Positions 2,106 to 3,503 of a DNA stretch of 11,592 bases are shown one piece after another. The translations under genes were made by a program, and so were the position numbers. Under the pieces are notes generated by a model that saw only the letters and a program-made list of their open reading frames with translations, had not been told where the DNA came from and searched no databases. Every line of letters begins with the position of its first letter. Within the stretch, counting starts at the first letter, position 1. The stretch lies in the NCBI GenBank assembly GCA_048939465.1, contig JBHLPL010000062.1:1-11592 (forward strand). The letters are read 5' to 3'. The stretch is from Promethearchaeota archaeon (lineage in GTDB: Archaea; Asgardarchaeota; Odinarchaeia; Odinarchaeales; JBHLKK01).

Positions 2106-3503
2106 TTACTTTTCCAACCTACTAAGAATATCGTCTCTTACCTGTACGACTTCTTCCATGAGTTTATGTATATCAACTGTCTGCACTTCCCGGTTTTCAA
2201 CAATAACTTTTCCGTTAACTATGGTAGTCTCAACGTCCGATCCATGAACTGCATATGCCAAGTGACTGAATTCATCATATAATGGCGTTAAATGTGGTTT
2301 ATTAATATCAACGATTACGATATCTGCCTTTTTTCCAATTTCTAAGGAGCCAATCTCATTATCCCACAGCAAGGCTTTTGCCCCATCTATTGTTGCCATT
2401 CTTAAGGCGGTTTTAGCAGGTATGACTGTAGGATCAGAAGATACGCCCTTGTGGAGAAGAGCGGCCATCTTCATGGTTTCAAAAATATCCAAAGTATTGT
2501 TTGAACATGCACTGTCGGTCCCTAATCCGACGGTAATATTCGCATCAAGGAGTTTTGGCAACGGACTAATTCCAGACGCCAGCTTAAGGTTACTTACCGG
2601 GTTATGAGCTACTTTGATGTTCTTCTCAGACATTATTTGCATATCTCGCGATGTAAGAGATACACAATGAGCGGCCATTACGTCTGGGCCTAAAACGCCC
2701 AAACTGTTGAGATATTCGAATACACCCTGATCAAAATCAGCATCTTTTACATCTATTCCCATCTGATTCCAAGTCTTGACAGCGTCCTTTGCCTTCTGCA
2801 TTTCATCAGGAGTCTCCGCGGTGTGCACATGCCAGATAACCGGTGCACCTGGAGTACCGTGCTTTTTGTTAAGATCATCCTTTAAGATTTTTAGCTCTTG
2901 GAAGTATCCAGGATCTACGGTATAAACAGCGTGTGGATCAATACTAACCCGTATCAATCCGCCTTTCTTATCATGCCAGTTTTTCACCAACTCTCTGGTC
3001 GCTAACCTATCAGCCTCTTTTCTGAAAGAAAAACAAACATGGCCAACTATACCTCGAATACCTACCTCAGATATTGCCTCAGCTTCTTTATTCGTATAGT
3101 GGTACATTGTATCCAGACATGTGACCCCGGATAGAGCGCTTTCTACAGCTGCCAGCTTAGCGCCTACATATACGTCGTTCTCATTCAGCTTTGCCTCTAA
3201 AGGAAATATCCACTCGTTCAACCACTCATGCAATGGTAGATCGTCGGCATATCCACGTAGCAGAATCATGCCTCTGAGCGATCAGAGAGGTGTCATGGCT
3301 GCGTGGGTATGGCAGTTAATGAGAGAGGGCAAGATTAGCTTTCCTTTACTATCGATCTTCTCGTATCCTGGGTAGTTTCGCGTTAATTCAGACGGCCCCA
3401 CATCCACTATGCTGTCATTTTCTACGACTACTACTCCATTCTTGATGACAGCATTTTCTTTGTTCATAGTTATTACGGTTCCACCTTCGATAAGAAGGCC
3501 CAT
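2106..3503 (-). CDS. mtaD: 5'-methylthioadenosine/S-adenosylhomocysteine deaminase (amidohydrolase, MtaD/DadD-like), intron-containing. Exons 3503..3292 and 3264..2106, 456 aa after splicing
   Basis: The track ORFs 3282..3503 and 2106..3269 are in the same frame. The joined product has [63 protein letters not shown] and GSLEIGKKADIV. GAGGTG RBS upstream of 3503. Substrate is assigned by family plus the ahcY neighbourhood. Confidence 0.9.
3265..3291 (-). other. 27-nt BHB intron in mtaD containing an in-frame TGA
   Basis: Minus strand: CCACGCAG-C-CATG-AC^A-CCTCTCTGATCGCTCAGAGG-CATG-AT^T-CTGCTACGTGG. Central helix CATG/CATG, inner hairpin, and a strong exon-exon helix offset by one unpaired C. 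Excision gives GCC ATG ACT CTG CTA CGT GGA (AMTLLRG). Confidence 0.93.

Follow-up and report, generated by a model that had tools for sequence, protein, structure and literature searches.

The BHB intron in the cbf5 pre-mRNA of Crenarchaeota (Watanabe 2002; Yokobori 2009, PMC2738675) is a short intron that interrupts the coding sequence at a conserved catalytic motif, and its cleavage follows the rule of a cut between the second and third bulge nucleotides (PMC2738675). Another mRNA substrate of the splicing endonuclease is the BHB intron of HVO_1309 in Haloferax volcanii, whose splicing was shown experimentally (PMC7714728); it is located in the 5′ UTR rather than in the coding sequence, and the reading frame of that gene is therefore independent of splicing. 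The 2020 Haloferax study that added this 5′ UTR intron named cbf5 as the only additional example (PMC7714728). BHB introns are also found in archaeal tRNAs, including the multiple noncanonical introns of Asgard tRNA genes described in a preprint that does not mention mRNA introns (bioRxiv 10.64898/2026.10.13.758758). In the searchable literature, coding-sequence BHB introns were confirmed only for crenarchaeal cbf5 (PMC2738675), and no paper was found on mRNA BHB introns in Asgard archaea.

The locus described here belongs to an Asgard archaeon and lies in a stretch of 11,592 nucleotides, referred to below as the window. Its mtaD-like gene is probably (we put the probability at about 0.85) one gene that contains an archaeal BHB intron of 27 nt. 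Like the cbf5 intron, the mtaD insert is short, is situated in the coding sequence at a conserved catalytic motif, forms a relaxed BHB with cuts predicted between the second and third bulge nucleotides, has a patchy distribution among relatives, and occurs in a host with a hetero-oligomeric endonuclease, the latter assigned by sequence similarity in the mtaD host. It differs from cbf5 in that the gene codes for a TRZ/ATZ amidohydrolase, in that the host belongs to the Asgard phylum, and in sharing its genome with nine or more other mRNA introns, which include those of a five-intron gene. Whereas the splicing of cbf5 was shown by cDNA and in vitro cleavage and that of HVO_1309 also by experiment, we infer that of mtaD. 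The motif and the expected enzymes, EndA and RtcB, are those of tRNA introns; unlike in tRNA, the host RNA is an mRNA, and hence the outer helix must consist of codons. In eukaryotes, Ire1 cuts the HAC1 and XBP1 mRNAs at two stem-loop sites independently of the spliceosome, and tRNA ligase or RtcB ligates the products, which changes the protein. With another nuclease, another motif and regulation by stress, the HAC1/XBP1 system resembles mtaD in mechanism only, not as a member of the same family.

Reading frames and orthologues of the mtaD-like gene

Two minus-strand ORFs, 3282..3503 (73 aa) and 2106..3269 (387 aa), share one frame at this locus; between them is an insert of 27 nt (3265-3291) that contains a TGA in frame. 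The deposited annotation lists them as a 73-aa orphan and a 387-aa "amidohydrolase." On the minus strand, positions 3245-3315 read CAT ACC CAC GCA GCC ATG ACA CCT CTC, followed by the stop codon TGA, then TCG CTC AGA GGC ATG ATT, and then CTG CTA CGT GGA TAT. The pentamer CATGA is found at 3297-3293 and again at 3270-3266, a spacing of 27 nt, with the hairpin CCUCU...AGAGG in between, and the ATG called as the start of the 387-aa ORF is part of the second CATG. The shared frame, the TGA at 3284-3282, the hairpin, the repeat and the palindromic CATG had all been pointed out in a first-pass annotation of the DNA, and these sequence statements hold. The features of the locus are collected in Table 1.

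Table 1. Features of the mtaD-like locus and proposed BHB introns in other protein genes. Coordinates are window positions unless a contig is named; C4, C24, C69, C77 and C113 are contigs of the same genome (G000).
Feature	Coordinates	Strand	Remarks
Exon 1 of mtaD-like amidohydrolase	3292..3503	-	Codons 1-70 + AC of codon 71; HxH metal-binding motif inside
BHB intron, 27 nt (A + inner hairpin + CAUG + AU), predicted, in-frame stop	3265..3291	-	Conserved in 17 contigs
Exon 2 of mtaD-like gene	2106..3264	-	T of codon 71, LLRGYADD... up to stop codon
In-frame stop within intron	3282..3284	-	TGA here; TAA in all sister lineages
Central helix H, 5′ strand, CAUG in exon 1	3294..3297	-	4/4 pairs; invariant in 6 lineages
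Central helix H, 3′ strand, CAUG in intron	3267..3270	-	4/4 pairs; invariant in 6 lineages
Bulge 1 (A C / A)	3291..3293	-	Predicted 5′ splice site 3292/3291; RNAalifold consensus
Bulge 2 (A U / U)	3264..3266	-	Predicted 3′ splice site 3265/3264; extra unpaired C (3298) opposite
Inner helix h′	3271..3290	-	CCUCU 3290-3286 with AGAGG 3275-3271; variable 10-nt loop 3285-3276
Outer exon-exon helix h, 5′ strand	3299..3311	-	His-Thr-His-Ala codons; pairs with 3248-3263
Outer exon-exon helix h, 3′ strand	3248..3263	-	Leu-Leu-Arg-Gly-Tyr codons, Arg = CGU
ahcY intron	482-509	-	28 nt; conserved in G001, G002
ahcY intron	346-377	-	32 nt; conserved in G001, G002
ahcY intron	Starts at 12-1 (first 12 nt in window)	-	27 nt
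ahcY intron	C24 7305-7334		30 nt
ahcY intron	C24 7268-7289		22 nt
Aminotransferase-like gene intron	G000:C4 11883-11912		BHB insert, versus G003 orthologue
GTPase-like gene intron	G000:C113 448-471		BHB insert, versus G003 orthologue
gatA-like amidase intron	G000:C77 44560-44591		BHB insert, versus G003 orthologue
aIF5B-like gene intron	G000:C69 18515-18543		BHB insert, versus G003 orthologue

The mtaD-like protein has the HxH motif in the form HTH and matches Pfam Amidohydro_1/3 (precomputed for a protein identical to the 387-aa ORF product), which establishes membership at the family level. Its best NCBIfam matches, NF004701, NF006549 and NF005557 (5′-deoxyadenosine deaminase), are all below the equivalog cutoffs, and JGI labels its homologues 5-methylthioadenosine/S-adenosylhomocysteine deaminase. 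The gene belongs to the TRZ/ATZ family of amidohydrolases, and its deaminase function is putative. Synteny with ahcY in an intronless relative fits a possible role in SAH/MTA metabolism.

Since the length of the insert is a multiple of three and the ATG comes 12 nt after the stop, a reading with two polypeptides is formally possible. A split gene would then encode a 73-aa piece (...HTHAAMTPL) and, by reinitiation at the ATG at 3269, a 387-aa piece (MILLRG...), which would assemble into an active enzyme. Gene callers do annotate two genes, neither ORF is disrupted and purifying selection acts on each, and AGAGG stands just 5′ of the ATG. However, a distance of only 1 nt between this AGAGG and the ATG is probably too short for Shine-Dalgarno contact, which counts against a split gene, and the break would occur directly after the HxH motif, within the barrel core. 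The first-pass annotation had argued for one gene rather than two, and the family profile agrees with it: the match to NF004701 runs up to position 69 in the 73-aa piece and begins at position 68 in the 387-aa piece, so that the fragments abut.

Removal of 3265-3291 joins AC, at the end of exon 1 (...CAT ACC CAC GCA GCC ATG AC), and T into an ACT codon, with the junction ATGAC|TCTGCT at the DNA level and a predicted spliced junction sequence of GCAGCCATGACTCTGCTACGT. This junction is letter-identical to that of the closest uninterrupted homologue (locus L048), the protein of which (P0003; 67% identical; NCBI label Odinarchaeia) aligns over its full length with a single gap of exactly nine residues, at HAAMT/LLRGYADD. 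Among 23 uninterrupted orthologues the junction residues are MT in 20 and MS in 2, the remainder being QC, and cutting by reference to the CATGA repeat only would yield Ile, which is present in 0/23. The orthologues thus bear out both the ACT codon with its family-typical MTLLRG product, as predicted at first sight of the sequence, and a seamless alignment once the 27 nt, i.e., exactly nine extra residues, are taken out.

The same residue weighs against programmed translational bypassing. In bypassing of the T4 gene 60 type, take-off and landing codons match and a stop codon directly follows take-off; here the ribosome would leave the AUG at 3296-3294 and land on the AUG 27 nt downstream, giving ...AAM-ILLRG. 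The matched AUG codons 27 nt apart, the hairpin between them and the stop codon in the gap are as such a mechanism would have them, but its product would have Ile at a position occupied by Thr or Ser in 22 of the 23 orthologues, the stop is three codons past the take-off codon instead of adjacent to it, and the other inserts of the genome (see below) carry BHBs and no matched take-off/landing codons. We know of no report of translational bypassing in archaea, and we regard it as a highly improbable explanation of this locus.

Fold, distribution and conservation of the insert

RNAalifold was applied to six lineages with no structure supplied beforehand. The consensus consisted of a 13-bp outer helix, a 4-bp helix with the 3-nt bulges ACA and AUU around it, and an inner helix of 5 bp (CCUCU/AGAGG) that closes a loop of 10 nt; 98.7% of the cells in the 13 pairs of the outer helix h were paired, and the inner helix h′ had 5 pairs. 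The fold of the single sequence contained the same elements, namely, the outer exon-exon helix, CAUG/CAUG, the inner hairpin and two bulges, with an MFE z-score of -2.65. Two points are noncanonical: a C facing bulge 2 is left unpaired, and 5-nt bulges are favored in the MFE fold of the single sequence. The insert is the top-scoring BHB in a +/-60-nt region, and the cuts required by the protein alignment are between the second and third nucleotides of each bulge. Both the consensus fold and the alignment thus place the cuts of the BHB exactly where the first-pass annotation had predicted them.

To define a class of BHB of mtaD strength, 4/4 central pairs, at least 5 inner pairs and at least 3 outer pairs were required at a fixed length of 27, on both strands of the whole genome. 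Such BHBs occurred at 1.6e-5 per site genome-wide, and as the alignment fixes the position within six sites, the chance of a coincidence is about 1e-4. A mirror-image control motif was equally frequent genome-wide, indicating that the motif is not generally enriched and that the weight lies with the coincidence at the mtaD site. The 20-nt hairpin has one copy in the 1.96-Mb genome, up to 3 mismatches allowed. The other introns found here have complementary, nonrepeated central helices, and for this reason we read CATGA as a by-product of the palindromic helix; as had been proposed from the letters, the repeat needs no transposon duplication, in line with the single-copy hairpin.

The insert is present in the three species-level genomes of the genus (G000, in which the window lies, G001 and G002; ~90% protein identity), with an open frame of 391 aa in each. 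NCBI, JGI, ENA and Logan assemblies yielded 14 additional contigs that carry it, which brings the total to 17 contigs, drawn from 12 or more independent assemblies; the intron has five different sequences among them, in six different contexts. The sister-lineage proteins (~90% identical) carry the NCBI label Promethearchaeota (Asgard), and the metagenomes with the gene come from sediment, mangrove and soil. The insert was not found in four genomes of the neighboring family in the same order (G003-G006), nor in any more distant orthologue read. Homology searches returned only a distant bacterial homologue among genome contigs and five homologues of 56-58% identity, all uninterrupted, among metagenome contigs, with no further intron bearers in either set. 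A 380-aa protein starting with MSLLRG (P0087) was considered as a second split lineage and rejected, its upstream DNA being continuous and merely without ATG. It is a Bathyarchaeia-like mtaD homologue (L131 480-700) that was called from an internal Met, the full-length frame having no ATG, GTG or TTG near the N terminus.

Strong purifying selection acts on both exons: among the six lineages, at dS values of 0.09-1.36, dN/dS ranged from 0.06 to 0.18 for exon 1 and from 0.02 to 0.13 for exon 2. The intron core varies at 1/19 sites compared with 96/164 four-fold sites (59%; binomial P = 1.5e-6), and the loop varies at 5/8 sites. A conserved core with a variable loop is the pattern of a structured RNA element. 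The exon codons also differ in their fit to the outer helix, with 12-13 of 14 pairs formed in intron bearers versus 4-10 of 14 in the 23 intronless orthologues, and the intron bearers use the Arg codon CGU rather than AGA in this helix. A compensatory change was seen at one pair only, G-C to A-U, in an inner extension that is not part of the consensus fold; covariation was not significant (236/500 shuffles reached the observed score), which we attribute to the close relatedness of the six lineages. The case for the intron rests on conservation, not on covariation.

These data also bear on a split gene. The stop and the ATG are retained in all lineages, as two polypeptides would have it, but they would need neither the invariance of the three four-fold sites of ACA CCT CTC nor the CCUCU/AGAGG complementarity, and an exon-exon helix specific to intron bearers and the exact BHB geometry would be left unexplained. 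A pseudogene, an assembly artifact or the footprint of a mobile element, i.e., a nonfunctional 27 nt with a CATGA target-site duplication, would account for the in-frame stop and for a 5-bp direct repeat flanking an inverted repeat, but can scarcely be entertained when 17 contigs of at least 12 independent assemblies carry the insert, both halves have dN/dS values far below 1 with dS reaching 1.36, the core is conserved far beyond neutral expectation, and the hairpin is single-copy, not multicopy as in a MITE or IS.

As a separate observation, comparison with one lineage (L040-L043; region 2106-3503) gave a dS of 0.09 for exon 2 and of 1.36 for exon 1, the intron differing at 3 sites. A nearly identical exon 2 next to a very divergent exon 1 suggests recombination, with a breakpoint at the intron or close by.

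Other proposed introns in the genome and the splicing machinery

Proteins of the ORFs of a closed 1.42-Mb relative (G003) were compared with the genome by tblastn in a motif-free screen for short extra segments. Nine further inserts were verified in protein genes; in each case the best regional BHB coincides with the insert at the predicted cuts, and removal of the insert makes the alignment seamless. BHB-type introns in protein genes of this genome therefore number at least ten with that of mtaD, five of which are in the nearby ahcY (S-adenosylhomocysteine hydrolase) and four, of 24-32 nt each, in other genes (Table 1). Candidates of the orthologue-guided screen on C31, on C20 and at C116:23353 sat on runs of N and were dropped as scaffold gaps, and 31 extra nt on C68 near 10910-10945 showed no convincing BHB. 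A scan of the genome that started from the BHB motif, with an ORF-joining filter and a blastx check, returned three clean cases only, and its weak hits were no commoner than those of the mirror-motif control (15 against 8). As short exons were missed, it was set aside as a census.

The ahcY gene comprises window positions 1-960 on the minus strand and G000:C24 7226-7574. The start of the window contig overlaps the end of C24 by ~78 nt (window 1-78, G000:C24 7497-7574), showing that the gene is split over two assembly contigs. Intron removal restores GGCEETTTGV..., ...KWDFDNIYG..., ...NTGHFNVE... and ...AAAEGHPSEVMD.... The 28- and 32-nt inserts put a middle exon of 104 nt out of frame, and its coding (...KWDFD) persists; as judged from sequence, removal at the RNA level is the only explanation that fits these two inserts. 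A split gene, as considered for mtaD, cannot explain frameshifting inserts in the same genome, and with the arguments given above we consider it very unlikely for mtaD as well.

The tRNA genes of the window appear to carry one to three BHB introns. ARAGORN called no tRNA in the window, missing genes at 3938-4062 (-), 5287-5464 (-) and 5588-5692 (+), and Rfam found tRNA-Leu(TAG) only. After trial removal of BHB candidates, ARAGORN called tRNA-Asn(GTT), a three-intron tRNA-Glu(TTC), and a tRNA-Leu interrupted by an intron of 20 nt. These calls fit the multi-intron tRNAs that had been proposed before.

Two EndA paralogues (PF01974), of 204 aa on contig C90 and 191 aa on contig C139, scored above the cutoff in this genome. 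The 204-aa protein is most similar to chain 3p1z_B of the Aeropyrum pernix tRNA-splicing endonuclease (E = 1.5e-44) and keeps GPGIDHxPFIVH; it aligns without gaps to 3p1z_B across a stretch that we presume to hold the Crenarchaea-specific loop. The 191-aa protein has Val in place of the catalytic His of Methanocaldococcus jannaschii EndA. The genome thus seems to encode a catalytic and a noncatalytic EndA subunit, consistent with a putative (alpha-beta)2-type enzyme. RtcB was found over the cutoff twice. One of the copies (G000:C31 2961-5708; L126, L128) lies in a 973-aa open frame in which profile positions 1-57 and 45-426 are matched ~1.4 kb apart, and this frame looks like an intein inserted in an RNA ligase.

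Proposed splicing of mtaD and its implications

From the anatomy of the insert, the exact restoration of the family sequence on its removal, the conservation of the core, the selection on both exons and the presence of the enzymes, we infer cutting and ligation of a BHB intron in the mtaD pre-mRNA. In the proposed pathway, the His-Thr-His codons would pair with the Arg-Gly-Tyr codons as the outer helix, the CAUG of the exon and that of the intron would form the 4-bp central helix, and CCUCU/AGAGG would form the inner helix, leaving ACA and AUU as bulges. A splicing endonuclease of the (alpha-beta)2 type would cut after the second nucleotide of each bulge, and RtcB would join the exons (...AUGAC + UCUGCU...) and probably circularize the intron. 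The full 456-aa enzyme would be made from spliced mRNA only, as translation of unspliced RNA would terminate after 73 codons. The intron was presumably gained in an ancestor of the genus, at a site that is already CATGAC|T in intronless relatives.

A more far-reaching proposal is that cutting and rejoining of these mRNAs by the tRNA-splicing machinery is obligatory and possibly regulatory, such that mtaD with one intron and ahcY with five would form a splicing-gated module in which EndA/RtcB activity sets the capacity for SAH/MTA recycling. We view this proposal as unlikely.

What is new here is the gene family and the phylum for a coding-sequence BHB intron, in a genome where such introns are common. 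A protein gene with five introns, as ahcY appears to be, would be unprecedented in print for an archaeon. Gene callers split or truncate such genes, and metabolic reconstructions from Asgard MAGs will consequently miss or misjudge them. Asgard archaea are the closest prokaryotic relatives of eukaryotes, and a BHB intron in the gene of a metabolic enzyme of an Asgard archaeon would widen the range of spliceosome-independent mRNA splicing. Codons that can be recruited as the exon half of a splice motif would, moreover, provide a testable model of intron gain at the proto-splice site CATGAC|T.
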